A stretch of DNA of 46,130 bases, from contig JAUCBJ010007445.1 of NCBI GenBank assembly GCA_032718475.1, forward strand, positions 1 to 46,130. Reading direction: 5' to 3'. Source of the DNA: Nemertoderma westbladi (lineage: Eukaryota > Animalia > Xenacoelomorpha). The position numbers and the translations under genes are program-made. Position 1 is the stretch's first letter. Each line of letters opens with the position of its first letter. Of the stretch, positions 1,737 to 46,130 are shown in pieces. A model generated the notes under the pieces. That model saw nothing but the letters and a program-made list of their open reading frames with translations, was not told the origin of the DNA and made no database searches.

Positions 1737-1885
1737 GTTTACTTTCAAACGCTTTTTAAAAAATAGTAAAAAAGTCTTTTTAACCACAAAATACAATTGA
1801 TGTTTTGTGCAATTTTTGTAATGATAATTCAGAGTTTCCGTGCGGCAGTCAAACAGGTTTTGTTAACAAAAAACTCAAAAAGGCG

Positions 1886-13149: not shown

Positions 13150-13189
13150 GTGGCTTTTAGCTTTTCTTGGTCTCTCGGTTTTCTTACAG

Positions 13190-13430: not shown

Positions 13431-13979
13431 ATAGAAAACGTAGAGAATAGAGTTACCCTTTTTTATTACTTTCACATCCATCAATTTATCGGACATTTTA
13501 GCATCCAAGATATTTAACAGTGGATCATAATCGGTGATCAATGGAGCTGCCATTGCAGCATGTTATAGTTCAATGCGAATTGTTTAACTCCAAGGAACTG
13601 TGTGGCCGTTGCCGGTGTTAAATTAAATTGTTATACAAACTTAATGAGGTGCATGAAGGAGGCGGCGGGTTATAAAGATTGGATTCCCTTCATTTTACTG
13701 GCTGAATCAGAAATATTAATTTAACTTCTGCGAGCAATTAAATATTTTTTACTATCTTACCTGCAGTGATTCTAGATTTCTTTCATTTTAAAGTTGAATG
13801 GATTTATATCAGCTGGAGTCATTTGTTAACAAAACATTATAAAATAACACTGTCGAGAATTTTAAAAGGCCTCGCACTGTTAGATTTATCCTTAAGCAAT
13901 GCAGTGCTAGATTAATTCTTGAACAACGCCTTCTAAACAATTGTTTAGGAGGCCGTGATCTTGAAGTAAATAATTAATA

Positions 13980-16710: not shown

Positions 16711-17149
16711 TAGATGTGGTAGACCCCTTGTGAACCTGGTAGGGTCACTTGTTTCATGGAGTATGAAAAATACTAGCTTTAGTAGCTTACTTCCACTATT
16801 AATAAAATTCATTCACCTCGAATTAGTAATAATTTACATTCGCCCATACCTTTAATGATAAGGCTATCAGCTGTATGAAATATTTAACACACACTAATGC
16901 TACCCTAAGAATAATTTCAAGTTTGTAAGGGGTGGAGTTTAGACAGTAGCGCCTAAGCAAACGGTATGGGTGTACTATATAAGTACAATAATCTTGGCAA
17001 CCTCGTCGATTTATACTAAGCCTAAGTAGAAATCCATTACATAAGCCATTTTTCATCATGAACACCAGCTGTTATTGGTGTAATTTTACCATTGCGTCTA
17101 TGGCACTTTTCGTTTATTTCATTTTTTGAAAAAACAAATAACTGTATTT

Positions 17150-20781: not shown

Positions 20782-21242
20782 ATCACATCATCATAAGTTA
20801 TTAAAACTGTTTTAAATTGAAAAACCTTTTTCAGTATGTTTCCTGGAACATTGTTAAAAAATATGAGATATATTATTCTTAATACATACAGTTAATGCTA
20901 GTTAATTATTAAACGAGTGAAAGTGAAACATTTGAAAAGTTTTAAGTTTGTATGAAATGCTATTAATTGCGTTAATTAACGTTTCTAACGTTTTAGAAAT
21001 AAGTTAGTATGTCTAGTTAGTTTGTTTATTAGTAAGTTTATTCTTAAATTGGTACTTTTTTGTACGAAGAATAGAAACATAAAATGAATTTACATGTAGG
21101 GCCTATTGATGTTTTCAATGTTGGATGTATTGAATATTAATGTTGAATTCATTTCTTGTACTGTGCAATAATATTCTTGTCAATAAATATCCATCTATCT
21201 ATCGAAATAGTGTAACAAATGAACTATATTGAACTGCAGTAT

Positions 21243-23410: not shown

Positions 23411-23956
23411 GTACTGGCAACTAACAGGAAAAGGTGGGGGTCTATATATATATATATAAGTTTTAAAGGGGAATACCTGATAGGTGAATCCCAGAAAGGT
23501 TAACGTGTATGTATGTACTGTATAGCGTAAGGTAATTGTGGTAGGGAAAATACACCCAGTTAGTTGTAAGCTGTCAATCTAAAGTACAAATATAGGGTTG
23601 CAGGTTGGGTTATAAGGTTGGGAGAAATTGATAGGGAAATCCCAGGAGTGGTCATGTGTCTACATACTGAATGGTATAATTGGATTAGGTAGGTTACATA
23701 GGATTATGAGGTATCTACTTAAAGCGCATGGTTAGGTAGAATGCAACATAATGATAGCTGTCTACATATTGGTTAAGGTGATGGGAAGGTTGCCGGGAAT
23801 TTTTACAGAATAAGAAATCACTAGAAACAGAAAAACCAAGACAAAAACAAAAAGGAAGGTAGGGGAAAAGCACATAAAACCCCGGAAATTCGCTATAGAG
23901 GGCACTGTAGTTGTGTAAGATATAGAATATAGGGTGTATTATATAAAACGTTGGGT

Positions 23957-26677: not shown

Positions 26678-27163
26678 CGCTCGTTCGGAATTGAACCAAA
26701 CTTAGTAGGTAAGTAGTAGAGAGAAAGTTTAGAAAGTTTGTAAAGTTTGGTGAAAAATCATGCAGTCTGACGTCAGCTACGACAGATTATGTGGTTTTTA
26801 GAAAATGTTAAATTTCTCGGGAAGGCCTCATTTTCCTGAGCTGAAATTTTGGTGGCCTGTAGAGAATCATGAAGTCTATCTTTTACGAAATTGAAAAGTT
26901 AAGACATTTAATTGGGGATCCGCTAGAGACTCAGAAGTAATGACATAGGCCTACCGGTACGGTACTGCTGTACAGTGCTGCACTGGTAAATACGAAATTG
27001 CAGAATAACAATTTGACACCACCTAGCGGATTAACATATGATTGTATATCGAATGAATACATTTATAGCATGGGATATGGGGTCCAAACTAGACATGCCC
27101 CATTTGCTCTATATGAACCGTATGCCAAGGCTTGCCGACTACGTGCTGCGCGAAGTCCCCACG
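26549..27163. mobile_element. Non-autonomous DINE-1/HINE-like (or MITE) insertion in the Penelope ORF
   Basis: Inverted repeats of ~54 bp (26560-26613 vs 27092-27145) and a (GTCY)n microsatellite at 26611-26646. It splits the Penelope KDHK / GRPIV motifs. Ends are approximate. Confidence 0.7.
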
Positions 27164-28058
27164 AACGTGTCCTTGTGGTCTTTAATAGTGCAGTAGAAGT
27201 ACGCTATCTTAGGGTGTTTAGGTAGTAGTAGTGGGTGTAGTGTGTGTTTGGTGTCGATATTACAGGTTTGTAGTAGTGCGTCAAGTTGTGTTCTGTATTT
27301 ATTAGTAGGGTCTTTAGTTAATGTAGTATAGGTGTTAGGGTCTCTTAAAATACGTAAGCATTCAATTTTATAGTCATTGGTATCTAGGATTACAGTGTTA
27401 CCAGATTTATCGCCCCTATACAGATAGATACGAATGTTAGTGTTGGACTTGAGTGATTTGAGGACAGTTCGTTGTTGTTTCGTAAGGTTGTCCTGAGGTA
27501 CATTTTTGGGGAGACATTGGGTGCCATCACCTTAAGGGGGGGGGGGGGGGGGGGTACACCATTTTGGTCCAAAATATGTCGAAATTTTTTTTATGGTCTA
27601 TTATAATGCACCATTGAATGGTGTTTCCAAATATGAAAACCGCTATTTAATAGCTCTTTTAGTTTTTAAGTTATGTAAATTTCCATTTAGGGAATCCTAT
27701 TGAAATTACTATTACTATGTATAATGAAAGGTCGATTATCTCCAAATATTTTTTTCATGAAAGTGTCAACTTCAAAACCCTACTACTTCTACAATTTTTG
27801 AGTAATTAGTCTGAAACTTCCTGTGGGTGTCTAGATAGCCACCCTGCATAAAAGTATCAGGCAACTTTTCGAAATTTTTTGTTAATAAAATTTAATACTA
27901 TTTATAAAAAACCTAAAAATTTGCATAAATTTGCAGCGCCACCTAGCGGTGCAGACTTATTTTAACAAGATTTCGCCTGATAGTTATGTTGCCCTATCTT
28001 TGATCTATCATATAAAAAAACTTTCATGTGATTAAAATCAAAACTGTAAAAGCCTTAG

Positions 28059-29314
28059 TGTACGCGCTTTTGAAGACCTTTAGCAGTTTAACCTGCCAAA
28101 ATTTATATGTCTTTTGATTTATAAATATACTTTAGAAGATGACAAATATTTAATACCAATAAACAAAACATTAGCAGAAGCCAGCCTAGTGCGCGTCCAT
28201 TCACCCGCTGGATAATCCCGGGAGGCTGGATTCTGTCGGCTTAGATTATTATTGCAGTGAAGCTTACGGTATTGTATTATTCGATTGATCGTTAATAATT
28301 AATTTCTGACTAATATTATTCACTTTCGGGAAATATTAACAGTTCCTTTTAGGACGTGGCGCTCTATCTAAGTAAACAGAGATATGACTTATACTAATCA
28401 CAACGGTAAGTCGGTAAGGCTTATGATTCACGTATGAGGCGCATTCTTTAGGAAATGCTTAGTTATCAGCCACAATCATGCACACTACCGGTAACGCACA
28501 ATACTGCTCACTAATTTGCCGACCGTCAATGAATTTTATCATATATAAAGAGAATAGCAACGGACTCATGTAGGGCTTATCAAATAGCATTAAATTCAAT
28601 ACACACCACAATAATATAAGTCGCAATCGCTATATATATAACCCGCCTCTCTAACCTGTAGTGTATCAAGAAAATTGGGAAATTTGGGTTCTTTATAAAT
28701 GTTCTCCAAATAATATTCAATCCACTGATATAAGATATGACAACAGTACAACATTAAGACGGTAGGTTAAGATATGATATGCACTGATATGGACCGATAT
28801 GTGAGTTGTTATGAACCGTGAATTGATAACAGTCATACGCTCTATAATCTTAAGCCTACTAATGTTTCTTTCTAGAGCCGTTGTTTCTGGCTTAGACAGC
28901 AATAACAACAAAGTATCAAGTAAAAACAGTAAGACTGAACACTCTCCTTATGATCGACCGAAAAGCTACACGTCGACAGGAAAAATCGCTCTGATTGGTT
29001 CAAGCCAAACAAAGAACCATGCGTCCAATGGCTGTTTCCATGTCAGCAACCAGCTGTTAGATGTCGTAATATGAATCATCACGGCTAAGCTATGAAAGGT
29101 ATTTGTCGCATTGCAGGTTTTTTGTCTTACCATGTCCGCTAAAACACGTATATAGCAGAATGACTTTTATGTCCGTTAAAACACCTGTAACGGTACCTTG
29201 AGGGCGAGGGGAATATATATACAGTTAGAGAACCTTTTTAGAGTATTCCAGCGCCTGGGGGGAAACTGGATTGCGAAGCAAAGGGGCCAGTTATATCCCA
29301 CAGAAGCTTTTACA
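28059..29314 (-). repeat. 3' LTR of the BEL/Pao element
   Basis: Direct repeat of 41670-42925. I noticed one substitution by eye (28151 T vs 41762 C). Confidence 0.95.
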
Positions 29315-29392
29315 CCGCTCCCAGAAAATGGGATTTGAGTCTATAAAATATACAAAATCACAGTTTCTAATATACGTAAATACTCTAAACAG

Positions 29393-30841
29393 TTAGTCTT
29401 TCTTGCGCGGACGGCGTTTACGCAGTTTTTTAAAGCTAGCCAGAGTCCTTTTCTCTTTGGGGCGAGCCACTTTACAAGGAGGGCTATAACTCCTGGGTGA
29501 AGGGTGCAATATGATTGCATCAGAGGGTGTAGGATTATGGTCGGTGTATCCGTCAGTCGAAGTACCGGGTTGATTGACATCAACGTCAGGTGAGAGGGGT
29601 CTAACGGCTTTGAGAGCTCGTTTCAAGACAGCCGCTCTTACGGGTCCTTTACGAGTGGTCTGAACGAGGGCCGTGGGTGGACCATAGGCAGTTAGAAACT
29701 TCCGGGGTTTAATGGTCCTTTCCAACTCGCGTTCGCGGGCTCGGTATTCGTAAGGCCGTCGATATACTTCCTGTAACTCAGGGTGTGAGTTAACAAACAA
29801 GTCTCCATAGTCCGGATCCTGACGGATATAATTGATTAAGTTATAGGAATGAAGGTCGCTAGGATTAACACTCCTGAGAAATTTGCGTACGAATTTGGTT
29901 GAAATACATTCTCCGACGCGCTTCAGTAGCTCGTAACTTGATATGCGTGATTTCTGTTCAACCGAAGCGAATAGATAAGGATGGAACGCATAAACTCCTT
30001 CGTAAGCGCGTCCGGGATAATAGCGATGGCGCGAATCACAATGTAAATCAGCGTTCGCTTCCCAAGCTCTGATGTAACGCAGTGTGATCATTTCATCTAC
30101 GCTTTCCAAATCGTGATTAAAAGGGCAGTCGAAACTAGCATGTCCCTTTAGTTGACAATGGTGACATTGAGTCATAAATTGAGGGCAAACCGCAAAGATA
30201 TGCAGGTTATTGAGTCTGCAATATGCGCAATAAATTTCCATAGTCGGTTGTTCTTGGAAATAGGAACAGCGGACGTTGGTGTCCATGGGCGTATCGTGGT
30301 CTCTCGATGCGCATAACCGACAACGTTGCCTAGAAACATAGTTGGCATGTCGATAATCGTACGCAGTGAGACACTGTGGACCTTGATACCATTCTAGGAT
30401 GTAATCGTTGTCGCTGTTCCGGGCGCGATAGGCTGAATCTCCTCAGATTCTAGGCATATTGGTTCGTCTTCCCAGTCTGTTACGAATATAATTTTCGTGA
30501 TCTATTCTCGGTTTATCGTTCCGACTCCGCTGGGTATGATATTTAAATAGAACCATTTCCCTTTCGGTGTCTACATCGTCCGTATCATGTAAATCGATAG
30601 GATGGCCGGTAGTTAGGAAGTCCATATACGTACTATTACGATGCGTATAGCGCGCGGTGGATTTTCGATAGTCCAATTCACGCGCAAGTTGCTCTTGGGA
30701 CATCGGCGGTTCGATATAACGACCATCGTCCTCCGTAATGGTTGGATCGGCTTCACCGCGTATTAAGCTATCCACAAATGCTTGCAAAGGTAGAGTATAT
30801 CGCTCCTTGATACCAAGATCATCTTCTATCAACTCCGTCAT
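29393..30841 (-). CDS. Accessory 3' ORF of the BEL element with zinc-knuckle-like motifs, interrupted by one in-frame TGA (30445-30443)
   Basis: ORFs 30443..30841 and 29393..30286 share a frame and the 52 codons between them are open. Motifs CRLCASRDH..C, CAYCRLNNLHIFAVC and CHHCQLKGHASFDC, with a basic tail KKLRKRRPRKKD. Confidence 0.6.
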
Positions 30842-31654
30842 ATCTGCTATCTGAGTTTGTTAATATCGAAATGAGTTTATGTTTAGGCGAGCGGACGTCG
30901 CTGCCCACCTCTCTTTGCCCCCGGACAGTGGGATCCTCAGCGCCGATGTACCGTTGTCGCGGTGTTTACGCCAACATGTAGCAACATCACGACAACGATA
31001 ACCGGCACAAGTCACTCCACTGTCCGTCCCAAAGGCTTGAATCCACTTTAGGTTCTTTCTATAGGAGAGTTGGGTTACTTTCACAATTGCGACTAGCTAC
31101 TGTAAACACACCTTAGCAGTAACATTCACCTACAAACGCACAAATTCCACACAACTGTCACCAATTGTACACATACAGGCCATTTGTCCGTTAGTCAGTG
31201 CCTTCCAGAATGTCACGTTATTACTGTGTATCCTTGGATACTAACAGTGTGCTATATTCTCTATGCTATGCAATGGGACAAGCTTTCTATTGTTCTTTTA
31301 ACTTGCTTCTAATTCTAGCGTGGGTGTTGCTATGGTGACATTATGGAATGCTAGCGGTAGAATTAGGGTAATTCTCATGCATACAGATCTGGGATGCTAT
31401 TTAATAATAATTCTTTAATTGTCAATATCCTCTTTATGCATGATTTTATTAATTTTATCGGCTATTGACTATATGTTGGAGATTCTCGCACTCTAATACA
31501 CTCAATAGGATGAATCTCCGCTCCCATGATCTATTAATTAATGGAATTTTGGGAATGTTATAAATTGTACAAAATGACAATTTATGAAATTCATTTAAAA
31601 TATGAATTTAAATTTATTCCCGTGAATTTTATTATTTGATGTTAAAATTGACAC

Positions 31655-31920
31655 AATTTGATTCCAGAGCAGGTCTGGGGACATAGGATCCTTAATTCTA
31701 TGAAATTTGTCTTTTAAGAGTATCGGTAAGTGCTACGATATCTTAATCGACTAGAATTGTTAACGGATCTGAATTTTACAGATTTTAATAAATATTAAAT
31801 TAATATTTAAGATGGGCACCGATTTATTCCAGAACTTGTCTGGGGACGTTAACCACTGATTCTAGAATTTGTCTTTCAAGTATATCGGTGGGTGCCGCGA
31901 TATCTTAATCGACTAGAATT
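31655..31920. repeat. Diverged ~165-bp tandem duplication inside the BEL element
   Basis: ATTCCAGA..TCTGGGGAC..ATTTGTCTTT.AAG..TATCGGT..TCTTAATCGACTAGAATT occurs twice. Confidence 0.7.
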
Positions 31921-32470
31921 ACAGATGGTCAAAAGGTTTAACAGATTTATTTGCGTTTTACGCTACTGTTAGAGGGACATCACGCTACTATATGTATTAT
32001 TTAATATAAGGTAGAAGAGCAATATCGCACGAAGCAATGTCAGTGTGAAGAGGCAAGTCGTTTCCAAGGTCTACCCAGAGCTTGGTTTAGCCGAGACACG
32101 AGGATCTGAACTTTGCATTCCTAATACTCTGCCTACCAATAATACTTGAATATAGTAGTGGCTTTATTGTACTTTAATAAGTACGGACATTTCATCTTAC
32201 TGTAGTCACGTATTTATAATATGATACAGACAGTAAGGAAAGAGAAAAATAATTATTTTCTCGCCGTCGCACTAAATGTATATTATAAGTAATTACGTAC
32301 GTAATAAACACTAATATATTGCACTAATCTACTAAATAATCACTAAAATAACATTCTACTAAATAAAATTGAATAAAAATGATTATAATAACATTACATA
32401 ATAATACATACATAAATATAAAATAAAACAAATATAAAATGATATAGTCACACGCCCACTCCACATGCTA

Positions 32471-35400
32471 TCACGTTATGGAGTCCCTAGATATTTGTCG
32501 GATTAGGGAAGTAGTCGTAGGAAGAGTATCTTGCCTTCCATAGTTTCCGGACAGTTTTCGGTCTCTTTCCAGTAAACATAAACGACTAGCTGGGCGATTG
32601 AGTTGTTGTGTTACTTTCTCCGCTCCCTTGGCCTGTCTAACCTCCGCCGTGGTAAGATGAGGAGGCCATTCTTCTTCTTCTTTACTTAAGAAGTCGGATC
32701 CACCTAACCAGCCTGGAGTATCTATCAGTTCTTGAGGAGTTGCTCCTCTGGAAGCGATGTCGGCTGGATTAATCGTCCCAAGGCAATGTCTCCATTGATC
32801 TACATTGGAGTTAATATCGTCATTATCTGAGGAGTATGGTGTTCCCTCAGTTGGATCGTCCACATCACTGCTCTCCACTTCCCATTCCTTTACTTGGTAT
32901 ACCTGTTGTTGAGGTAATCTCTCTTTGAGAGTTCTACGGGAAGGGCCAGTGAAGTACCAACCTACTCTAGTTCTTACCGCATAGGTTTGTAGTGGCTGCG
33001 GTTGAGCAGGCCGTTTCTCCAATGTCTCGAGCGCCTCATGCGCGTTTTGGCCGATGAGTATTTGCACTCCAGGAGAATCTGTCTGGAATCGAGGTATCTT
33101 AAGATGTTGGATGCTCTCATCCTCGTCCCAATTATAAAGGTCTGCTTGGGTAGTAGCGAAGTTCTTTATAGCCACCATTTTTACTGACCTTATACTTTGT
33201 GCTCCTAATTTATCCTGGGGGGTGGACAACGCACCTACATAGTAGTCTGCCGTTAGGGTAGATTTCCAAACCTGCATAATTCCTGACATATTCAATTTAG
33301 TCCAGAACTTGGGTTGTCCAGCAAAGATATCTTCGGCTAGTTCTTGATCGATGAATGTTCCTGTACTGCCGGAGTCAAGGAGGGCGTTCACTATGTAACT
33401 TTTGTTAAGACCGTGAACTCTTACCTGCACTACAGGAAATTCTCTGATTCCTACGTTGGAAGTTGGAGCTTTCCAAGATGGTTGTTTGGCAAAAGTAGTT
33501 GGGGGAAACTCATTGTTGGTGTCCTTTTCATAAGTAAGTGCTCGATACACTGCGGTATTGATTAGATAACAGGATTCGTTGGCGTCGGAGAATTCGTCAG
33601 TATAGAATCCTTCCATCTCAGATTCTTGATCAGTGTCGTTTACATCACTGAATTGGACATGTAGTTCGGGCTCACTTACCTGACTCAGTTTGTCTCGTTC
33701 GAACTCACTGTGTAACAAGATGTGATGTTTCGCGCCACACTTTGCACACTTTATGTCGGAGTAACAGGTTCGCCATTGGTGTCCTGATCTGAGGCAATTA
33801 TAGCATAACCGCTTATTCCACAGGACTGTACGTCTGTCTACAAGGGATTTCTTTAGAAATTCAGCACACGCACTCAAACGGTGGGGCCCGTCGCACAGCG
33901 CACATTTTGGTTTGATGTTACTCACCTTAACTTGGTTAACGTTCTGCACTCTCGTTCTTTCTTCGGGCTTTCTTCCGTGAATTCTCTTAGGAGACGTAGG
34001 AGGAATTGTTATTACCTGTTCTCTCCTGTCACTGGTTCGAGACTTGTATTTACTTACGTCTTTATAGGTCTTGTTGTCATAGTAAGATTTTGCTGTGTCT
34101 TTCCCGCTGTCCTCTTCTTGAGAAGCTTGGCTTTCGCCGTCGTCAGTATAACACACTGGTATTATCCTTCTCCTAGAAACGGGTTTCTCACTTACCTTAT
34201 TTTCCGATGTTTTCTCTCTGGACTGCCTTATGAGTTGTAATTTTACTTCACTATCTAAGAAAGACATGAGATCAGCCATGTTAGGACTTCGTCGTTGTTG
34301 TTCATTCATGTACAACACTTTCTTGTCCCAGCGTGTACATACTCCACCCTTTGGTAAAGTAGAGACTACGGCTCCAATAACCATGGAACTCTGATATTCA
34401 TGCGACTTACCTAACCAGTCCAGTTGTCTACAGATCTCTTGAATTTCATCGGAAAACTCTATAATCCCGCTACTAAGGAAGTGTCGGGGGGCTACTAATT
34501 TTGCATACAAATACTTAGCTATGTTATCCTTGTTACCATACCTGATGTTTAATGTATCCCAAACTTGTCTTAATCCATCTGGATGTCCAATAAACTTTAA
34601 TGCCATTAACTTGGGAGGTCCTTCCAAGCACTTGATGAGGAATCTAAGTTTCTCTCCGTTAGATAGTACAGAGTTCTGTATGCTATCTTTGTAATATTCG
34701 TTGAAAGGTAACCATTTCATCTCATCTCCATTGAATTTGACGATCTCTCCCACTTTGACCGCTTGGCGGGCTTCTGTTCTAGCCATCTGACGCGTAAAGC
34801 TTTCTTGGGCCATCGTGTTATTTAATATCGAATTATCGGTATATAAATTTCTCGGATCATTATCAGGTCTATAGGGAATATCATTAATAACAGGTCTATA
34901 ATCACCCTTAATAGGGTTTGCTATAGGAGTTTCAACTTCACTAGCAGTATAGATGCGTGTAGGCTCCACACCTTGCGCATGTAATACTTCAGACCTAACA
35001 GGTTGACACAATGTTACAGGGGGTATTGGTATGCCCTTTTGGATATTGACTAATTTGTCGCGTTCTAGTGCGATACTTTGCTGCACTTCTTGCAACTCTG
35101 CTCTACCTTCCCTCACTGTTCCCTTAAGTTGGTGGACAGTCTCCTGCATCTGTCCTAGCAGGAGATTCATCCCCCGCCGTCCCTCCTCTACCCACTCAAC
35201 CGCCGAAGCGGGAGTCGCCAACATAGTAGCGGGCTGACGCGGGACGACGGGAGACAAATTATTGATTTCTCTCTCTGCTATCTGGACAGGGGTATTCTCT
35301 TGGACTGTTCCACCGGGTACAGGCAGTGTAGTACTATGTAAAGGGAATTTAGAGTTAAGCTCTGGAAGTGCAGGGGTCTCTAGCACAGAAGTGACTTTGG

Positions 35401-36601
35401 GAACAACAGGCCTAATTATTTCAGGTTCATCGACTATAGTAGGGAGTCTTTTGACCTGGATAAATTGTTCTATGGGTTCTGCACTACCTAAGTCTGTGCT
35501 AGTTAGCTGTCTTTTAACAGCTGGGGGCAAATCAGGCAATTTGCGACGGTAAGATGTTTTTCTACGCCTACTTAGATGAGATCTATTTCCTCCGCCTTCA
35601 GGATCGGTGGTCTCGCCTTCCTCCGAGGATGTGTATCCCTGGCGCTTGGGAGTAGATTTTCTCATCATCTGCATTTGATTAGCAGTAAACTGTTTATTTA
35701 TACTGTCTTGTGTCTCTTGCAGATTTTCCAACTCCAGTTGGGTAGTCTGCTCAGAGGCTTTCCGTTCTGCTTCTGCCACTGCCTTTGCTGCTTTTGCATC
35801 AGCCGCCGCTGCCTTTCTTTCTACTTCTGCTTCTGCCATAGCCGCCGCCTTTTGTTCCTCTATCCGTCTTTTCTTTATTTGTTCTTCTCGGACTCTAATG
35901 AGGCGGAGTTTTTCATCACATTCAGCTTGGTTTGCAGCTAACATTTCGGCATCGATTGAGTCCAACACAAGCTTGGTTCCTTCACTATTAGGGGAAAGTC
36001 CAGACAGCCGTCTCCTCAACTCTTCGTCTCCTAGGAATCGCTGATAGTCGGACAAATAAATGTCGATAGCGTCTCTAGTTCGCGGCTTCTCTGCTGATGT
36101 TAATTCGCTTTCCACTTCGCTTTCCACCTCGCTTTCCACTTCGCTTTCCACCTCACTTTCCACTTCGCTTTCCACCTCACTTTCCACTTGAGAAGAAGTG
36201 GCGTCGGTTGATTCTTCATAGGTTGGCCGCTCATCATAAACCGTATCCGCCATCTTCGCTCCGCGTTCGGGCGTCCGCTCAACAGTATCCGAACTACTGG
36301 AGATATCGGGCCGCTGAGAACTAGGTTCTTGGCTAGGAGGTTGCTGCTGTTTTATAGCTTCTTCTTGATCCCGCTTGACTTGGGCCCGAGTGCCTATGGC
36401 AGACCAACGGAGCTTCACTAACTTCGCAAATTGCGAAATCTTTTCTACCAACCTAGGTTCTGACACAACCACTGCAGGGGTTGCCCTTCTTACAGTATGA
36501 GGGGTTTCAGACCTCGGTCTGGGATTCTCTACACTTTGATCTGAGAAACAGGCTGTTGTTTCTAGGAGACTATCTGACAGAGTTTGCCTTGTGTCAGCCA
36601 T
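32471..36601 (-). CDS. BEL/Pao Gag-protease fused in frame to an RNase H C-terminal remnant
   Basis: KFNGDEMKWLPF (DUF1759-like), triple knuckle CALCDGPHRLSAC / CYNCLRSGHQWRTC / CAKCGAKHHILLH, protease ALLDSGS, ILIGQN, TRVGW, then WRHCLGTINPADIASRG..W..G..FL....WP. Contains a 12-bp (ESEV)n repeat at ~36105-36187. Confidence 0.92.
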   Translation of the reverse strand: MADTRQTLSDSLLETTACFSDQSVENPRPRSETPHTVRRATPAVVVSEPRLVEKISQFAKLVKLRWSAIGTRAQVKRDQEEAIKQQQPPSQEPSSQRPDISSSSDTVERTPERGAKMADTVYDERPTYEESTDATSSQVESEVESEVESEVESEVESEVESEVESELTSAEKPRTRDAIDIYLSDYQRFLGDEELRRRLSGLSPNSEGTKLVLDSIDAEMLAANQAECDEKLRLIRVREEQIKKRRIEEQKAAAMAEAEVERKAAAADAKAAKAVAEAERKASEQTTQLELENLQETQDSINKQFTANQMQMMRKSTPKRQGYTSSEEGETTDPEGGGNRSHLSRRRKTSYRRKLPDLPPAVKRQLTSTDLGSAEPIEQFIQVKRLPTIVDEPEIIRPVVPKVTSVLETPALPELNSKFPLHSTTLPVPGGTVQENTPVQIAEREINNLSPVVPRQPATMLATPASAVEWVEEGRRGMNLLLGQMQETVHQLKGTVREGRAELQEVQQSIALERDKLVNIQKGIPIPPVTLCQPVRSEVLHAQGVEPTRIYTASEVETPIANPIKGDYRPVINDIPYRPDNDPRNLYTDNSILNNTMAQESFTRQMARTEARQAVKVGEIVKFNGDEMKWLPFNEYYKDSIQNSVLSNGEKLRFLIKCLEGPPKLMALKFIGHPDGLRQVWDTLNIRYGNKDNIAKYLYAKLVAPRHFLSSGIIEFSDEIQEICRQLDWLGKSHEYQSSMVIGAVVSTLPKGGVCTRWDKKVLYMNEQQRRSPNMADLMSFLDSEVKLQLIRQSREKTSENKVSEKPVSRRRIIPVCYTDDGESQASQEEDSGKDTAKSYYDNKTYKDVSKYKSRTSDRREQVITIPPTSPKRIHGRKPEERTRVQNVNQVKVSNIKPKCALCDGPHRLSACAEFLKKSLVDRRTVLWNKRLCYNCLRSGHQWRTCYSDIKCAKCGAKHHILLHSEFERDKLSQVSEPELHVQFSDVNDTDQESEMEGFYTDEFSDANESCYLINTAVYRALTYEKDTNNEFPPTTFAKQPSWKAPTSNVGIREFPVVQVRVHGLNKSYIVNALLDSGSTGTFIDQELAEDIFAGQPKFWTKLNMSGIMQVWKSTLTADYYVGALSTPQDKLGAQSIRSVKMVAIKNFATTQADLYNWDEDESIQHLKIPRFQTDSPGVQILIGQNAHEALETLEKRPAQPQPLQTYAVRTRVGWYFTGPSRRTLKERLPQQQVYQVKEWEVESSDVDDPTEGTPYSSDNDDINSNVDQWRHCLGTINPADIASRGATPQELIDTPGWLGGSDFLSKEEEEWPPHLTTAEVRQAKGAEKVTQQLNRPASRLCLLERDRKLSGNYGRQDTLPTTTSLIRQISRDSIT

Positions 36602-36734
36602 GTTTGATTGTACAGTTGAATGCCTACTGCTATATTACAGTTAAAGCAAGTCTAGTAATTCAGTATCACTGTTAGCCTAGTAATTAATTACCGATACTGC
36701 TACTCAGTGTAGCGTGATATATATATAATATATT

Positions 36735-36980
36735 AGAATACCGGTATGCTTATAATATATATAAGTATTATTACAGACTAGATTTGTCACAGAGTACCGG
36801 TATATAATTTTAGCACAAATATATATAAATATATAATAGGCCTATCGTGGATACCGGTATACAGCCTACACTTATAGTATATAAGTATAATTCTGGACTA
36901 TAATTAATTACAGAGTACCGGTATGATTTCAGCACAAATTTATAGAAATAAATATAATAAGCCTATGGTAAATACCGGTA
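36735..36980. repeat. ~120-bp tandem duplication rich in TACCGGTA palindromes in the BEL leader
   Basis: TATATAAGTAT..GACTA..ACAGAGTACCGGTAT..AGCACAAAT..GCCTAT..TACCGGTAT occurs twice. Confidence 0.7.
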
Positions 36981-37363
36981 TGTCAATTATTTTAGAATAA
37001 TTGAATTTCTGAATATTTTAGGGTTACTTGGTTACTTTAACTTACTTTGTTACCGTTATTTAAGCAGTAGTCCAACTGATTTTGAGACCTAGTTGTTGTA
37101 TGGCAGGCCTACTATTTATAAATCGTTTGAGTTGATTTATAATATATATATACCCGTTTAAAAGGGTTTTGTCAATATTTGAAACAAATGTTATTATTTC
37201 TGGGGTTCACTACACAGAAGCTGTGCGCTCTCAGTGAAGTGCTATTTATTGGACACTAAAACTGATAATTCTAATTTACCTAAGTTACTTAATACTACAA
37301 ATTACTTACGATATGGGTGAGATTAAATCTCTTATTAAACACAACAAAAAATATTACGTACGA

Positions 37364-40178
37364 TGTGACGGGATCCAGGAGGGATCCCGATTTATCCGAT
37401 GTGGTATTTAGTCCACGCGTCCCCGCCGTGTATAAGAGTGAAATAAAGATAACTGAGTTCTGAAGTTCGGTGTATAATAATAGGTTATAGGATATAGATA
37501 TATTGTGAATTATACGGTAGGCGGGATACGGTAACTAAAGTCCCGTGATCCCCTAACTAAACTAATTGGCTGTACCCTACGCTAGCACTGCTGCACTGAG
37601 ATAACTGAATCACTGATTAATAGGTTATTGGTTATATTGCACGGTGGCCTTACTGCTACTCAATCGATGCCATCCCCCCCTCTGATTGGTTAATACCCTT
37701 GTTGGCGCCCCGTGGAGTATTCCCGTTCACTCCACCTGTTCTCCTTGGGTTAGGGGTTTGGCCCCTGACCCTCTATTGTGTGCCTCCTTCCCACTCTCAT
37801 TGGGATGGCACGAGTTGGTTAATTGCCCAATCTCGTGGCTCCCAATATTGCTTATCGGCTAATAACTTTATGGGGTGTTGGCAGGATTGAATAAGCTAAC
37901 ACTCCCCCCCATGCTATCTTCCCGGTAAGAAGATAGCATCAACCAAAAAGTGCGTTACAATCCCGCTGGATCCCGATCTAGTATCGGGTGTGGGGTGGAA
38001 TTCTTTTCTCTTGGAGCCGGCTTTCCAGGCCACCCCCTATGGGTATGATAACGCTACCCTGTGTGCCTGGCGTCTCATGTCGGGCCGATCGCGTTCACCT
38101 CTTCACGCGATTTTTGTTTCCCCAACACTTTCGCCCTTGACTCTACTCTCCTCTCACTCTACTCTCGGACTTCCTCGTCCCTCACTCAGCCTCTTATTCT
38201 CCCCCCCCACACTAGAATTGCGTTCGCACTCTCTCCGCACTTCGCACTCTTATTCCGATTCTCAACTCCACTTTGACTGTTTTATCTCTCTTGACGAACC
38301 TCCCCCCCCCTCTCGTGCCGTCGCACTCAAGAAGCGTGAAATTGTCAGTTGTCTCGTCCATAGTGCCATAGTCAATTGTCCCCCAGTCCCAGTAGCTAAT
38401 TGAGAAAGGTTGTATGACTATAGTACTTACTCCAAACGTATGTATTTTACTGCTAATCACTACGTACGTACATACAAATTGCACTTATATAGTTATTTGC
38501 ATTAATTAAATTTATACTTTCCGTTTCTATACCGTGTACTATACCGTTTCCCTCTCTAACCGCACTCTCCCTTCCTCTAGCCGTTCCTTCATTTCTCTAT
38601 GATCTTTCGCTGCCATGCTGAGGCGATATTCGGCACCTATTTCTCTCACCGCTCTTCCTTTCGCGGAGGATGTAACAGACTTATCGGTTACGACGGATTT
38701 CCCCCGCCTTCCCGACCTACTGATTTTCCCCCGCTTCTCGGAGCTTTCTCCGACCGACGAGGCCGAATCCTCGGGGTTAACCTCGGATTCGCCCCCTTCG
38801 GGTTCCCTCCAGCCTACTGGTTTTACTCCCCGGGCATCGACCAAGTATGGCCCTATGTACACTGACGCTACACTAGGTTCCATACTCCCACACTCCCATA
38901 GTTCAAACAGTTCCCCGGCAATCCCGTGTGCTCTCGTTTCGGCTAGTTCTTTTTGCCCAAAACGTATTAGGTAATTTATGTGTCTATCCGACTCACCTAG
39001 TCGCTTTCTCAGTCTCACCTCGTCTACCTTCGCCCCTTCCTTCTTGGCGTCCTTTATCATCCTTCGGGTCGCGTTGTAGGCCCGTCGAAGTCGCTCTGAA
39101 ACCCCGACGTCCTCGTCGCCGACCTCTCCTCCGTCCCTCCGGGTTCGACGTCGTACCGGCGGCTCCACCGTCGCCGTTCCGGTGGGCCGTCCGTCGCCCT
39201 CGGCCTGTAGCTGGCCGGCGACATCGGTACCGATCTCTTCTCCGTCTCTTCGTGTCCGGCGTCGCACCGTCGGCCCCACCGTCGCCGTTTCGGTGGGCCG
39301 CTCGTCGCCCTCGGCCGGTAGCTGGCCGGCGACATCGGCGCGCCGTTCTCCCTCTCGCGTCGACTCATCTCCCTCTCCCTCCGTCTCGCTCTCTCTCTCT
39401 CTTGGCTCGACTTCGGGTTCCAGGCCCTCCTCGTCCTGGACTTCCTGTTCGCCCATTATCGATGGCTCCGGCGTCGTGGGCCCGTATCGCTTGGTCGCGG
39501 CCTCGCGGATCGTTTGATCTTCGTCCGGGGTCCGCGTCGGTGTCTCGCCCGATTCACTCATCTCGTTTGTGACTGATGATTCGGCTAGCTAGGTTGTAGT
39601 TCTTAGAGTTTAACTAGGGCGGCAGCTCGGCTTTAGTTACTGTGACGGGATCCAGGAGGGATCCCGATTTATCCGATGTGGTATTTAGTCCACGCGTCCC
39701 CGCCGTGTATAAGAGTGAAATAAAGATAACTGAGTTCTGAAGTTCGGTGTATAATAATAGGTTATAGGATATAGATATATTGTGAATTATACGGTAGGCG
39801 GGATACGGTAACTAAAGTCCCGTGATCCCCTAACTAAACTAATTGGCTGTACCCTACGCTAGCACTGCTGCACTGAGATAACTGAATCACTGATTAATAG
39901 GTTATTGGTTATATTGCACGGTGGCCTTACTGCTACTCAATCGATGCCATCCCCCCCTCTGATTGGTTAATACCCTTGTTGGCGCCCCGTGGAGTATTCC
40001 CGTTCACTCCACCTGTTCTCCTTGGGTTAGGGGTTTGGCCCCTGACCCTCTATTGTGTGCCTCCTTCCCACTCTCATTGGGATGGCACGAGTTGGTTAAT
40101 TGCCCAATCTCGTGGCTCCCAATATTGCTTATCGGCTAATAACTTTATGGGGTGTTGGCGGGATTGAATAAGCTAACA
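37364..40178 (-). mobile_element. Small non-autonomous LTR retrotransposon (2815 bp, probably BEL/Pao-derived) nested in the BEL leader
   Basis: 538-bp TG...CA LTRs (37364-37901, 39641-40178; one A/G difference noticed), 5-bp TSD TACGA (37359-37363, 40179-40183) and polypurine tract G(n)AG at 37910-37902. Confidence 0.93.
38539..39561 (-). CDS. Truncated Gag-like protein of the small LTR element
   Basis: 340-aa charged ORF with a 37-aa internal duplication. VNPEDSASSVG + Ser-rich + coiled segment resembles BEL/Pao Gag N-termini. No pol motifs. Confidence 0.55.
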   Translation of the reverse strand: MSESGETPTRTPDEDQTIREAATKRYGPTTPEPSIMGEQEVQDEEGLEPEVEPRERESETEGEGDESTREGERRADVAGQLPAEGDERPTETATVGPTVRRRTRRDGEEIGTDVAGQLQAEGDGRPTGTATVEPPVRRRTRRDGGEVGDEDVGVSERLRRAYNATRRMIKDAKKEGAKVDEVRLRKRLGESDRHINYLIRFGQKELAETRAHGIAGELFELWECGSMEPSVASVYIGPYLVDARGVKPVGWREPEGGESEVNPEDSASSVGESSEKRGKISRSGRRGKSVVTDKSVTSSAKGRAVREIGAEYRLSMAAKDHREMKERLEEGRVRLERETV

Positions 40179-40769
40179 TACGAGATTTTTAGGGTAATTT
40201 TACAGGAAGTCTACAAACCAGCCTAACAAAGGGTTAGATTTCTGGTTATTACAACTGACAGAATACTACGGTATTTAAATAATAAGTAGTAGTAAATATA
40301 TTGCACTGTCCAGATAAGAAAATACCACCGCCTGACGACCTATAGCCGTATCTCTATAGGTACTACGTTATGTATCACGGAGTGTTCCTACCCAGAAGTT
40401 AATAGAGCTAACGAATGTGCCTATCAACCACTTTACAACACAAATATACTGCCTACACACTAATTACTTCGGAAAGCACTGTACACTAAACCCTAAATTA
40501 GGTACAAGTACTGGTATAACAAATAATCAGCAGTTAAATATACTTGAACAGTTAAAAGAACCACGGCATCTGCTGGAGTGACCGAAGCACAAAGTCACCA
40601 GTCTTTTCCTACGCCAAGCAGCCCGTGTAGTACCGGGGTTAATTTAACTATAACGGTATGTGTAACAAACACAATTACTGTAGGAATAAACTTGGGGACA
40701 TGAATGTTGCGAATAATCGCATAAACTCTGAATAATAAATATTACGCTACCCGTACAGAATACTCAAAC

Positions 40770-41300
40770 AAATACAAACCAAAACGCTGGCTGACTACCA
40801 CCAAGCCTAAATAAACTACCGTACGTGTAGATTCTGAAATAGTTAGTTAGTATGCGTTCTAACACGGTAGTACGACTTATTCTTTAAGAGGGGATTGACC
40901 TTACCGCTATGGCTGCCCCAACTTACTAACGGAGCTTTATCAGACAAACTCTACACACGCAGCAATCTCTTCAGACCTAATAATAGCTAGACAACAATCC
41001 AGCCTACAAAATATCTGAGTAATAACTATTACGGTACCTGAACAGACCACACAAACAAACACAGGCCAAAACGCTGGCAGACTACTATCAAGCCTAAATA
41101 AACTACAGTATATGCAGATTCTGAAATAGTTAGTTAGTATGCGTTCTAACACGGTAGTACGACTTATTCTTTAAGAGGGGATTGACCTTGCAGCATATGG
41201 CTGCCCCAACTTACTAACGGCACTCTATCAGACAAACTCTACACACGCCGTAATCTCTCCAAACCCAACAACAGTCAGACATCAGTTCAGCCTACAATTA
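40770..41300. repeat. ~290-bp tandem duplication in the BEL leader
   Basis: CAAAACGCTGGC..AGATTCTGAAATAGTTAGTTAGTATGCGTTCTAACACGGTAGTACGACTTATTCTTTAAGAGGGGATTGACCTT at ~40780 and ~41068. Confidence 0.9.
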
Positions 41301-41477
41301 TCTGAACAATCTGAGCAGACTTACACGTCTTCAGCTCAATATTTACTTACTAGGAAATAAAACCGACAGAAATAAGTAAAATCTCAATAAAAACCAGGGC
41401 GGCCGTTCCCTGATTAAATACTAAGACCTACCGGTATACTATAATCAAAATCGAATAATACTAATGTACTTATACTG

Positions 41478-41605
41478 GAAGTACCGGTTAGGGCAGTTGG
41501 GCCTACGGACCTACAGAAGTGCCGGTTCTGGCAGTTGGACCTACTGACCTACAGCAGTACCGGTTCTGGCAGTTGGGCCTACTGACCTACAGAAGTACCG
41601 GTTCA
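41478..41605. repeat. 38-bp tandem repeat, ~3 copies, near the 5' LTR
   Basis: GGCAGTTGG(G/A)CCTAC(G/T)GACCTACAG(A/C)AGT(G/A)CCGGTTC occurs three times. Confidence 0.85.
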
Positions 41606-41669
41606 GGTTTACCGGTCGATCGGTACTTTCAACTTTATTGCTTACTGCAATAAAGTCAATGACTGTTAT

Positions 41670-42925
41670 TGTACGCGCTTTTGAAGACCTTTAGCAGTTT
41701 AACCTGCCAAAATTTATATGTCTTTTGATTTATAAATATACTTTAGAAGATGACAAATATTCAATACCAATAAACAAAACATTAGCAGAAGCCAGCCTAG
41801 TGCGCGTCCATTCACCCGCTGGATAATCCCGGGAGGCTGGATTCTGTCGGCTTAGATTATTATTGCAGTGAAGCTTACGGTATTGTATTATTCGATTGAT
41901 CGTTAATAATTAATTTCTGACTAATATTATTCACTTTCGGGAAATATTAACAGTTCCTTTTAGGACGTGGCGCTCTATCTAAGTAAACAGAGATATGACT
42001 TATACTAATCACAACGGTAAGTCGGTAAGGCTTATGATTCACGTATGAGGCGCATTCTTTAGGAAATGCTTAGTTATCAGCCACAATCATGCACACTACC
42101 GGTAACGCACAATACTGCTCACTAATTTGCCGACCGTCAATGAATTTTATCATATATAAAGAGAATAGCAACGGACTCATGTAGGGCTTATCAAATAGCA
42201 TTAAATTCAATACACACCACAATAATATAAGTCGCAATCGCTATATATATAACCCGCCTCTCTAACCTGTAGTGTATCAAGAAAATTGGGAAATTTGGGT
42301 TCTTTATAAATGTTCTCCAAATAATATTCAATCCACTGATATAAGATATGACAACAGTACAACATTAAGACGGTAGGTTAAGATATGATATGCACTGATA
42401 TGGACCGATATGTGAGTTGTTATGAACCGTGAATTGATAACAGTCATACGCTCTATAATCTTAAGCCTACTAATGTTTCTTTCTAGAGCCGTTGTTTCTG
42501 GCTTAGACAGCAATAACAACAAAGTATCAAGTAAAAACAGTAAGACTGAACACTCTCCTTATGATCGACCGAAAAGCTACACGTCGACAGGAAAAATCGC
42601 TCTGATTGGTTCAAGCCAAACAAAGAACCATGCGTCCAATGGCTGTTTCCATGTCAGCAACCAGCTGTTAGATGTCGTAATATGAATCATCACGGCTAAG
42701 CTATGAAAGGTATTTGTCGCATTGCAGGTTTTTTGTCTTACCATGTCCGCTAAAACACGTATATAGCAGAATGACTTTTATGTCCGTTAAAACACCTGTA
42801 ACGGTACCTTGAGGGCGAGGGGAATATATATACAGTTAGAGAACCTTTTTAGAGTATTCCAGCGCCTGGGGGGAAACTGGATTGCGAAGCAAAGGGGCCA
42901 GTTATATCCCACAGAAGCTTTTACA
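41670..42925 (-). repeat. 5' LTR of the BEL/Pao element
   Basis: Direct repeat of 28059-29314 with TG...CA ends. Confidence 0.95.
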
Positions 42926-43133
42926 CTTAGGGTTTTAAGCGCAACCAAGTTTTTTTTATTGTTAACTAGTATTAACTAATATTAAATAGCGGAAAATTTT
43001 TTTTTTCTGACCTGTCATGTAGAATAGCATCTTAGGCACCTATATGCCAAATTATAGCCAAAACCAAACAATTTTGAGACGCTGAGAGTGATAAATCGAA
43101 GAGTTGTCCGAAAATGGTGTACCCCCCCCTTAA

Positions 43134-43457
43134 CCAATATGTAGACAGCTATCATTATGTTGCATTCTACCTAACCATGCGCTTTAAGTAGATACCTCAT
43201 AATCCTATGTAACCTACATAATCCAATTATACCATTCAGTATGTAGACACATGACCACTCCTGGGATTTCCCTATCAATTTCTCCCAACCTTATAACCCA
43301 ACCTGCAACCCTATATTTGTACTTTAGATTGACAGCTTACAACTAACTGGGTGTATTTTCCCTATCACAATTACCTTACGTTATACAGTACATACATACA
43401 CGTTAACCTTTCTGGGATTAACCTATCAGGTATTCCCCTTTAAAACTTATATATATA
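43134..43457 (+). repeat. Inverted partial pLTR of the Penelope element (continues from 27524-27535 across the TTAA site)
   Basis: Reverse complement of ~23450-23772 with about four mismatches noticed. CCATCACC-TTAA-CCAATATG reconstitutes the reverse complement of 23765-23784. Confidence 0.9.
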
Positions 43458-46130
43458 CAGGGGCGCCGGAAGCAAATTTGTGCGACGGGGGCAGCTGCTA
43501 AAAAAGGGCACTTTTTATAATACGATAATAAAATTAGAAAAAAGTTACTATTAAATAATAGGCGTACTTATTAATTACTTTTATTACTTTAATTAATTAT
43601 TTGCATGAAACATTGCACTACCTAATATAATAATACAAACGGGGTGTATTAAATAATAGGCTTACTTATTAATTACAAGTTTGCATTGTATTGCATATAC
43701 ATAAAAGTAAATACATACAAAATATACTGTATAAACATACGTACATTAAAAAAAAATTTGCATGAAACATTGCACTAACTAATATAATAATTACAGCCTA
43801 AACAGCAGATTGTTTGCCAGTTATATCATTGAAATGAGATTGGAATTATAAAATTGAATGACTCACGATAATTTAGTTAAAATTTCCCGAAATATTTTTT
43901 CCGCCTATCAGTTTTTACAATAAATTCCCTGGCGACTTTCTCAGAAACGATGTTGTCGATGCGTTCCTTATGAAGTACGGCAAACATTCTATTGCTTAGG
44001 CTGTTGGCTGACATTTTGGATCGCAGCCATGATTTTATGCGTCGCATGGCACTGAAACTGCGCTCTGCTGTAGCAGATGAAAGTGCCACCGACTGGTAGA
44101 GCTGCAATAACTTACATAACTCTGGCATGAATTCCTTGCTACTTTCTTTGGATGCTAGAATTTCACATAGTGTGTTAAGTTTAGTTACCCTTCTGATTGG
44201 TATAGAGTTCTCTTTGTTGTGAATTTTGATATGGACAGGTAACTCTCGAAGCTCTTCAGTCAACATATCGAGTTTAATTAGCTTAGAGAAATGGACGAGT
44301 TTCTCTTGGACATCATCTAGAGTTCCTTCCTTGTTTGCAGCATCCAACAAACACTGTTCTATATTTCGCAGGTGTCTGAGGTCTTCTTGGTCAAATCGTT
44401 TCTTGAGTGATTGACTTGTGGAGTCAATTGCTTCATAAAATTCAACAAGGAGCCTCTTCTTCTCACACATATTTGTAACCTCTATGGGAGTTTTAGAATG
44501 AATAACAAAATCTGACATGCGGCCTCCTGGGGTAGTTCTTTTCCTTTTTGTAATTTCGTCATTGTGTTTTATTCCAGACATCTTCTCTACTTTGTTATAA
44601 ATCCGCTCAAATTCAGTTTCTGAACGTAGCTCTTGCAAACGGATATATACTTTGTCAATGCTGGTAATGGCTTGTTCAGCAGTAAGATTGGAACTCTGTA
44701 ACAGTTTGGAGTTATTTTCAAGTAACTGTGCCAACTCCTGCATGGCTACAATTCTGAACATATTCGGGAATTGTTGAATCTTGGCCAGCAGACCACGTGC
44801 CTTAGATCTACATTCAGGTTTGACAGATTTATCTTCTTTCAGGTGTTCTAACATTGCCTGAAGCTCCGTGTGCTTTTTTGTGATTACTTCTGCTGCAGGT
44901 CCTCTTGTAGTCCATCTTGTACGTGACAGGTTCTGTAGTCTTAAGGTGGCATTATCATTGTCAACTTCCCTTTGAATTGCTTCGAATAGCAAGATTCTTT
45001 TTGGACTTACACCAACAAGGGTATATAATTCTTCGCATAGGTCTTGTGAATATTCAACCAGTGACGAAAGAGAAGTAGCATCCTTGAACACTAACTCATT
45101 ACAATGAGCAAAACAATGAAAATACATTGCATGCTGGGTGATATTATTTTTGATCAATTCAGCAAGACTTTTCATCGAGGAAGCTCCATCGAATGCCATA
45201 CCTACCATTTTTTCTGTATTCATTCCACAACGAACAAGTATATCATTAACATATTCAAGAAGGGCGTCCGCTGTCAACCCCTTGTCGCAAGGTAAAACCC
45301 CCACAAAATCTTCTCGAATATCAAATGTGGTAGTACAGTAGCGGACAGAAAATGAGAGCTGCTCAGTTTTGGAAATGTCACTTGATTCATCACAGATTAT
45401 AGAATAAAACTCAGCTGCAATGATTTCATTCACAAGCACTCTCCTCGCTTTTAATACAAGGGACTCTTCTTGTTCGGTTAGAATTTCATGTGAAAAGAAC
45501 TGGTTTTCCTCAAGAAGACGTTTAAGCCCACTGTCGCTTAGTGCTTTATCTATATTAAACTGCCAGATATTTGAGTCTAGGTCTGTATGACCCCGTATTG
45601 GAAGTCCTTGGCGAAGAAGCGTTTTCATAGTATTAAGATGAGCAACTAGACCTTGTCTTCTTAGTTTCTGTTGTTCTCTTACCTGATCATCAAGTTGGCA
45701 GCCTATATCTGGTGAATCTTTTCGTGAACTAATTTCGGATGACCTGTGATTTTCGCTGTTCTCATGTTCATTCAAACGCTCCACTCCTTTTTTCCAATTC
45801 CGAAATCCTGGTGCCGCAGAGTGAAATACGAATACCGAATTATCTCGAGGTTGCTTGAAATGAGTGCAGATTCTGCAGAAAGCAGCCAATTTGTCACGGT
45901 TATACCACAGCCACGGATGGGATTCAAACCATTCAGATTGAAAGTACCTTCCATTGTTGATGCTTTTTTGCTTCTCTTTAACAGAGAATTTGCTTCTTTC
46001 CATGATCCAGGGGTCAGAGAAAACTAAGCTGCCTGGGTCTGGCCGTTGCTTCTCTAAACTAGAACTAGCAGAAGTAGACTCAGATTCATTTAAATCTACA
46101 TTTGGCTGTTGTGCGGGTGCCGGTATTACA
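43458..46130 (-). mobile_element. hAT DNA transposon, runs off the window
   Basis: CAGGGGCGCCGGAAG terminus directly after a (TA)n run, with an intact transposase ORF. Confidence 0.85.
43877..46129 (-). CDS. hAT transposase (ZMYM1/THAP12-like; TTF zinc finger, DUF4371, hAT dimerisation domain); frame is open to the window edge
   Basis: RYFQSEWFESHPWL..FCRIC, YSIICDESSDIS, FDGASSM, HCFAHC, TRW, SATAERSFSAMRRIKSWLRSKM. There is no stop between 46003 and 46129. Confidence 0.92.
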   Translation of the reverse strand, partial: VIPAPAQQPNVDLNESESTSASSSLEKQRPDPGSLVFSDPWIMERSKFSVKEKQKSINNGRYFQSEWFESHPWLWYNRDKLAAFCRICTHFKQPRDNSVFVFHSAAPGFRNWKKGVERLNEHENSENHRSSEISSRKDSPDIGCQLDDQVREQQKLRRQGLVAHLNTMKTLLRQGLPIRGHTDLDSNIWQFNIDKALSDSGLKRLLEENQFFSHEILTEQEESLVLKARRVLVNEIIAAEFYSIICDESSDISKTEQLSFSVRYCTTTFDIREDFVGVLPCDKGLTADALLEYVNDILVRCGMNTEKMVGMAFDGASSMKSLAELIKNNITQHAMYFHCFAHCNELVFKDATSLSSLVEYSQDLCEELYTLVGVSPKRILLFEAIQREVDNDNATLRLQNLSRTRWTTRGPAAEVITKKHTELQAMLEHLKEDKSVKPECRSKARGLLAKIQQFPNMFRIVAMQELAQLLENNSKLLQSSNLTAEQAITSIDKVYIRLQELRSETEFERIYNKVEKMSGIKHNDEITKRKRTTPGGRMSDFVIHSKTPIEVTNMCEKKRLLVEFYEAIDSTSQSLKKRFDQEDLRHLRNIEQCLLDAANKEGTLDDVQEKLVHFSKLIKLDMLTEELRELPVHIKIHNKENSIPIRRVTKLNTLCEILASKESSKEFMPELCKLLQLYQSVALSSATAERSFSAMRRIKSWLRSKMSANSLSNRMFAVLHKERIDNIVSEKVAREFIVKTDRRKKYFGKF

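Follow-up and report, generated by a model that had tools for sequence, protein, structure and literature searches.

A candidate LTR-derived self-primer in a BEL/Pao-derived element of Nemertoderma westbladi, in the element nested within it and in related families

The window analysed here is a stretch of 46,130 nucleotides from Nemertoderma westbladi (GenBank assembly GCA_032718475.1, contig JAUCBJ010007445.1, positions 1 to 46,130). Host genes are found at 17443-20787, 9702-10208 and 110-1862 (-), and are a KY/hillarin-like ORF, an Sdh5 ORF and a split forkhead gene, respectively. The KY/hillarin-like ORF is uninterrupted and shares no more than 30 % identity with any database protein. For one host protein, the best named matches are spiralian, at 26-30 % identity. 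A satellite built from a 26-bp unit in 169 copies (96 % matches) occupies 3601-8028. The minus-strand regions 11362-16744 and 43880-46129 include an ORF with a LINE-like RT, the remains of a broken Ty3/gypsy-like pol in which integrase domains are present, and a hAT transposase ORF of 750 aa that runs past the end of the window. A Penelope-like element (23957-27531, minus strand), recognized by reading its RT-like and GIY-YIG-like motifs, contains a 914-aa ORF with an in-frame insertion of a Thr-rich tandem repeat and no Pfam match. This element and the BEL elements described below are enclosed by a 330-bp inverted repeat (23449-23778 and 43128-43457), the arms of which are 99 % alike, lie 19 kb apart and each begin at a TA run. 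No flanking duplication common to the two arms was seen.

The features of the two LTR elements, referred to as outer and nested, are listed in Table 1. The LTRs of the outer element differ by one mismatch over 1256 bp, and the element is flanked by a 5-bp target site duplication (TSD), CTAAG, at 28054-28058 and 42926-42930. The LTRs, TSD and polypurine tract (PPT), together with the Gag and protease homology, agree with membership of BEL/Pao. DUF1759 was detected in the outer ORF by Pfam with an E value of 7e-12, and 15 of 15 homologues of this ORF were BEL/Pao polyproteins containing PF05380 and PF18701 (22-43 % identity). A comparison with 1.84 billion representative sequences returned a single match at E < 1e-30. 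However, the complete pol (PR-RT-RH-IN) expected of BEL/Pao is not present, and neither an RT motif nor an integrase was found by ORF, Pfam and motif examination of this copy. The ICTV profile of the Belpaoviridae (Semotivirus) also describes an 18-nt site for host tRNA-Arg or tRNA-Gly (PMC8742986), and the corresponding site in the outer element does not start with TGG. A further reading frame towards the 3' end (29393..30859) gave no significant family match. Upstream of it, at 30860-31300 on the minus strand, are short, broken Cys-rich reading frames, from which a 70-aa piece had no Pfam match; we take these, as an impression, to loosely recall an env-like remnant. Contigs of run X1 include diverged copies of the outer family, one of which crosses the nested insertion site without an insert.

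The LTRs of the nested element also differ by a single mismatch. Its TSD is TCGTA and its PPT lies at 37902-37915. The one-base differences within the two LTR pairs indicate that both insertions are young. The nested ORF has no homologue in Pfam, the atlas or the databases. It does contain a short PEDSxSxVG motif that is found near the N-terminus in 15 of 164 BEL polyproteins and in none of 30 control proteins, and that scores 14.3 bits against a profile of the 15 BEL N-termini (a reversed control scored below 0). This motif is a weak hint that the nested element may belong to BEL/Pao. The earlier note, made from the sequence of this window, treated the outer element as a BEL/Pao retrotransposon. 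This needs amendment, as both window elements are non-autonomous and neither has an RT or integrase ORF. Judged by its sequence, the outer element is a young, non-autonomous (pol-deleted) copy of a divergent BEL/Pao lineage.

Table 1. Positions of features in the outer and nested elements
Feature	Position	Strand	Basis or remark
Outer element, BEL/Pao-derived	28059-42925	-	LTR pair, TSD, Gag-PR homology
Outer 5' LTR, 1256 bp, TG...CA	41670..42925	-	Repeat comparison
Outer 3' LTR	28059..29314	-	Carries second primer copy at 28826-28836
Outer primer-binding site, non-TGG, directly after terminal CA	41659..41669	-	Sequence
Outer candidate self-primer, perfect 11-nt complement of post-LTR site	42437..42447	-	LTR positions 479-489
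CCAAT-box-like motif, 162 nt upstream of outer primer	42600..42612	-	Putative function
Initiator-like TCAGT, 102 nt upstream of outer primer	42543..42552	-	Candidate start site
TATA run, with GC-box-like motif upstream of run	42242..42251	-	Alternative promoter downstream of primer
Candidate 157-nt intron in outer LTR, downstream of primer, weak	41722..41878	-	X1 contig joint
Outer ORF, 1387 aa: BEL/Pao Gag (DUF1759, three zinc knuckles), protease motif, short RNase H C-terminal piece	32471..36634	-	
Extra 3' reading frame, 138 aa + 349 aa split by one stop, Cys/His-rich	29393..30859	-	
Polypurine-tract-like sequence ahead of outer 3' LTR	29315..29330	-	
Nested non-autonomous LTR element	37364..40178	-	538-bp LTRs at 39641-40178 and 37364-37901
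Nested primer-binding site, non-TGG	39631..39640	-	
Nested candidate self-primer, 10 nt	39808..39817	-	Second copy at 37531-37540
Nested ORF, 349 aa	38539..39588	-	Carries PEDSxSxVG motif

The sequence ATAACAGTCAT (41669-41659) abuts the terminal CA of the outer 5' LTR with no spacer and does not begin with TGG. The window contains its perfect complement at two places only, 42447-42437 and 28836-28826. When the LTR was shuffled with its dinucleotides preserved, a match of this length was equalled in 8 of 5000 shuffles, and of 75158 other 11-mers of the window, 42 find a complement in the outer LTR. When the offset from the LTR end was varied from -15 to +30, the complement was longest at offset 0. 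The site, its complement and a register at the LTR end, where minus-strand synthesis begins, had all been described in the earlier note and are present as described. The same note had reported that the nested element repeats this arrangement, and it does so with an unrelated LTR: GTAACTAAAG (39640-39631) pairs with 39817-39808 and 37540-37531, a 10-nt match reached by 2 of 5000 shuffles and by 55 of 75158 window positions, again with a peak at offset 0. In a wider search that covered offsets 0-5 and allowed splicing, 2 of 200 shuffles were as good for the outer element and 0 of 200 for the nested one. The only sequence common to the two LTRs in a sensitive BLAST comparison is a 12-nt CCAAT-box motif.

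Relatives were recovered by scanning half of a metagenome collection with nine BEL polyproteins as queries, and 78 loci were taken from the best 80 of 487 confirmed matches. As the survey was seeded from the clade with self-complements, the counts below are no measure of the frequency of the trait across BEL/Pao. For 26 loci, representing 14 families, the 5' LTR end could be defined by a 3' LTR in the same contig or in a sibling contig; 13 loci with less than 500 nt upstream were skipped, and the remaining 39 were examined by a boundary-free scan. Scans of viral contigs found no BEL/Pao relatives.

None of the 14 families has a post-LTR site starting with TGG. Thirteen have a 10-15 nt complement to their own LTR that begins 0-5 nt past the terminal CA, and in each the match was reached by 0-3 of 200 shuffles in an identical search. 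At the level of LTR copies, 23 of the 26 tested reach 10 nt. The exceptions are the family L051/50, in which the complement is only 6 nt, was matched in 153 of 200 shuffles and the LTR boundary is unsure, and two additional LTR copies within positive families. The 13 positive families hold 10 distinct types of site sequence, with one site common to four families, and the post-LTR site therefore covaries in differing letters with a complement inside the LTR. Sites matched their own LTR over at least 10 nt in 15 of 17 cases and other LTRs in 14 of 272, 12 of the latter being among the four families with a common site. The boundary-free scan found complements of 10-15 nt in 17 of its 39 loci, each reached by 0 of 20 shuffles, and fewer than 10 nt in the other 22; an indexing flaw for candidate ends within the first 50 nt affected non-significant rows only. 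Two insect-clade controls, L079 and L080, have TGG sites, and L080, for which the LTR end is defined, has a self-match of only 5 nt. The normal TGG site is absent from the 14 families and present in the insect-clade loci.

Two of the loci require separate comment. In L001, one of the 13 skipped loci, the repeat extends to the edge of the ORF, where a TGG is found, and no end could be defined. L080:9438-15498 is a BEL/Pao element of the insect type whose two LTRs (195 bp) are identical. It has a 5-bp TSD and a TGG site and lies inside a Wolbachia chromosome record, in surroundings that resemble bacterial coding sequence. It could be a host retrotransposon in a host-integrated Wolbachia copy, a true insertion or an assembly artefact.

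All 15 sites with a complement (those of the 13 relatives and the two window elements) start with RT. The RTAAC start that the earlier note had pointed to is confined to the two window elements and L078 and is not a general feature. The 3' end of the primer is AC or AT in 15 of 15 cases, and this is not imposed by the complement search. In the relatives the duplex ends 0-5 nt from the terminal CA and not invariably at it. AATAAA or ATTAAA was found 11-128 nt downstream of the primer in all 13 relatives, which fits a primer in, or just before, R. Neither hexamer is present in either window LTR. A distance of 767 nt separates the outer primer from the LTR end, compared with 62-278 nt in the relatives.

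The complement is contiguous in only two of the 13 positive families and spans a GT-AG junction in 11. The donors are GTAAGT in seven families and GTAAGC, GTAAGG, GTACGT and GTGAGT in the others, the introns are 71-366 nt long, and the primer is split 4-9 nt from its 5' end. This position implies an upstream exon, and the primer is therefore probably the end of a longer 5' fragment, not the first 11 nt; a primer taken from the very start of the RNA, as in Tf1, is unlikely in the intron-bearing relatives. In L078, the 5' LTR is intron-less, with 14 contiguous nt, and the 3' LTR bears the intron; an assembly chimera of two copies is a possible source of these mixed LTRs. Both window primers are contiguous, and no splice junction that lengthens either was found. 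They may be products of intron loss, or they may represent an older state. An intron passed on via the 3' LTR copy would be lost once that copy was spliced, leaving contiguous primers such as those in the window. A weak candidate intron was seen downstream of the outer primer, where 157 nt of the LTR are missing across a joint in one X1 contig and a second joint reaches the same place. This length equals that of a GTAAGC...AG pair, 5 nt off the reported joint and with a weak acceptor (AAAAG), and the counterpart in the 3' LTR is at 28111-28267.

A tree of the RT-RNase H region unites all 13 positive families in a single clade (SH-aLRT 95), separate from the clade of L080 (SH-aLRT 100). The outer element, represented by Gag-PR and the RNase H piece in faster tree methods, forms a long branch outside both clades, despite a higher profile score for the self-complement clade (301.5 versus 259.0 bits, 30 sequences each), and was left unplaced. 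With its Gag-PR outside the surveyed clade, the surveyed relatives are not its close kin, and the trait in the outer element and in the surveyed clade may go back to shared ancestry or to independent origin.

Minus-strand synthesis must begin at the LTR end. The duplex ends there and the 3' end is AC or AT in every case, which by analogy with Tf1 points to a self-primer. We therefore favour self-priming in cis, with a probability of about 0.6, and self-priming in one form or another appears quite probable. The element RNA would fold back so that the post-LTR site pairs with the LTR stretch in a duplex of 10-11 nt. Cleavage at the 3' end of this duplex, by the RNase H of an intact relative, would then yield a new RNA end that starts minus-strand DNA with no need for a host tRNA. 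For the window elements, an autonomous relative would supply RT and RNase H in trans. Most of the relatives would form the duplex only once the LTR intron had been spliced out, and the strong-stop DNA would span only sequence 3' of the cut. The pairing, its register at the LTR end, its covariation across families and the lack of TGG are observed, whereas we infer that the primer is transcribed, that the duplex forms, is cleaved and is extended, and that RT is supplied in trans. The earlier note had proposed a BEL/Pao lineage that converged on a self-primer; covariation across families supports the self-priming part of that proposal, and the arrangement is wider than one lineage. On balance, we lean towards the view that a large BEL/Pao branch has swapped tRNA priming for a primer of its own LTR RNA, mostly assembled by the spliceosome from two exons so that splicing would gate reverse transcription, with the contiguous primers of the window as intron-less forms of a system that would be old in the superfamily.

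The predicted folds differ between the two window elements. For the nested helix, each of the seven starts tried gave a predicted probability of 0.98-1.00. The outer helix is predicted (0.91-0.93) only when the RNA starts no more than 5 nt from the primer, and falls to 0.05 or less for starts 20-130 nt upstream; in silico removal of the candidate 157-nt intron did not rescue it for upstream starts. The 12-mer shared by the two LTRs, the CCAAT-box-like motif, is identical and lies 149 nt upstream of the nested primer. The promoter-like motifs of the outer LTR lie 102-162 nt upstream of the primer and about 200 nt beyond it on the downstream side, and so disagree with the fold, which needs a start within 5 nt of the primer.

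The position of the promoter bears on an alternative form of self-priming, in which transcription starts 3' of the primer, such as below the TATA run at 42251. The earlier note had raised this possibility, with priming or circularisation from the RNA 3' region. The primer would then come from the copy in the 3' LTR or, in trans, from a separate short spliced LTR transcript. The TATA run that the note reported at 42251-42242 is present, some 200 nt 3' of the outer primer, together with its GC-box-like motif. A cis duplex would also have to close a long loop of 767 nt, and folding does not predict it when the RNA starts upstream. In L078, moreover, a TATA-like motif 11 nt before the primer would place the start within the intron. 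However, this is the only one of the 13 relatives with such a motif near the primer, the nested cis helix folds at every start tried, and Tf1 acts in cis (PMC7175516). We consider this alternative doubtful. It is improbable that the duplex is instead a structural element, a packaging, translation or splicing switch that covers the region, with priming by another site or RNA. Long-range leader pairings are common among retroelement RNAs, sequence upstream of the outer primer is also predicted to pair with the leader (3 of 100 shuffles, in one of 33 tests), and the relatives' duplex is not always placed exactly at the CA. Against this, all 15 pairings are found at the start point of minus-strand synthesis, the 3' end is always AY, and no TGG site takes the place of the pairing.

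Priming by a half-tRNA or another host small RNA, with a secondary LTR match, would be a further way to dispense with TGG. The outer primer bears what we take to be a loose resemblance to a GTT anticodon loop. Half-tRNA priming sites that lack TGG are described for some Ty1/copia lineages (PMC6317226, PMC5445492). However, the 13 families have ten site sequences, each matching its own LTR and mostly over a splice junction, a tRNA gene search of the window found none, and an Rfam search of 36600-43000 gave two sub-threshold matches in all, neither of them tRNA-like, making this very improbable. Finally, the matches in the window could be due to chance, the tRNA sites of two defective elements having decayed. 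RT and integrase are missing from both elements, one isolated match of 10-11 nt is expected at about 1 in 600 to 1 in 2500, and a genome scan covers many elements. This explanation is strongly disfavoured, given that two unrelated LTRs both peak at offset 0, that one-base LTR differences mark the insertions as young, and that the signature recurs in 13 of 14 families.

Self-priming has been demonstrated for Tf1, in which RNase H cuts after an 11-nt duplex (PMC7175516). Predicted cases are the Tf1/sushi group, Tcn1 and, among copia elements, the TAR lineage (PMC6317226, PMC7175516, PMC4600332). Like Tf1, Tf2, Tj1 and the Tf1/sushi group as described there and in bioRxiv 10.1101/2022.12.06.519325, the outer element has no tRNA site, and its post-LTR site can pair without a mismatch with about 11 nt of its 5' LTR. 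However, Tf1/sushi elements are Ty3/gypsy chromoviruses, whereas the outer element has a BEL/Pao Gag-PR-RNase H, and all homologues of its ORF are BEL/Pao and not chromovirus polyproteins. Candidates for the flanking 'pretzel' helices reported for Tf1 (bioRxiv 10.1101/2022.12.06.519325) exist in the window but are not above shuffles (22/100 and 59/100 for the outer element; 42/100 and 51/100 for the nested one), and most relatives form the complement across an intron. The Tf1 primer is the 5' end of the RNA; the window primers are candidates identified by pairing. The window elements likely work like Tf1 and are not members of the Tf1 group. Prediction from complementarity is likewise the basis for the Ty1/copia TAR lineage (Houba, Osr-1) and Tcn1 (PMC6317226); these belong to other superfamilies, in plants and fungi, and a primer intron goes unmentioned in the available part of that source. 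The fungal copia element GalEa resembles the window elements in having no tRNA site after the 5' LTR, and differs in that the site is a local hairpin for which no complementary LTR segment was reported (PMC5445492).

Within BEL/Pao, the outer element shares with canonical members the DUF1759 Gag, three zinc knuckles, protease and RNase H motifs, TG...CA LTRs, 5-bp TSD and PPT. The canonical tRNA site is matched in form (TGG start) by L079 and L080, and not by the window elements or the 14 families. Cer7 of Caenorhabditis elegans, a BEL/Pao element, is said to encode its own tRNA-like primer and would be a further host-independent case; the window differs in that the tRNA gene and Rfam searches gave no tRNA-like sequence. 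A literature search that lay outside supplements, Repbase and subscription journals found no account of BEL/Pao self-priming or of an LTR intron within a primer. The main texts of PMC3118150 and PMC6238403 never mention primer, PBS or tRNA, PMC554778 mentions primers for PCR and sequencing only, and PMC8220671 has nothing on BEL/Pao priming. The splice-built primer of the relatives is the more novel part, and is not directly applicable to the two window elements, which contribute a divergent lineage with a contiguous primer and, in the nested element, a second case.

According to the ICTV profile, replication of BEL/Pao elements is primed by tRNA and is poorly understood (PMC8742986). If much of BEL/Pao self-primes, that description would be wrong for a large branch, and self-priming would be present in all three LTR-retrotransposon superfamilies, which bears on whether tRNA priming or self-priming was the ancestral mode, a question raised in PMC3601003. 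Annotation tools that need a tRNA site would miss or mis-bound such elements. The elements themselves would be independent of the tRNA supply and of control by tRNA fragments, and the splice-built primer of the relatives would tie host splicing directly to the start of reverse transcription.
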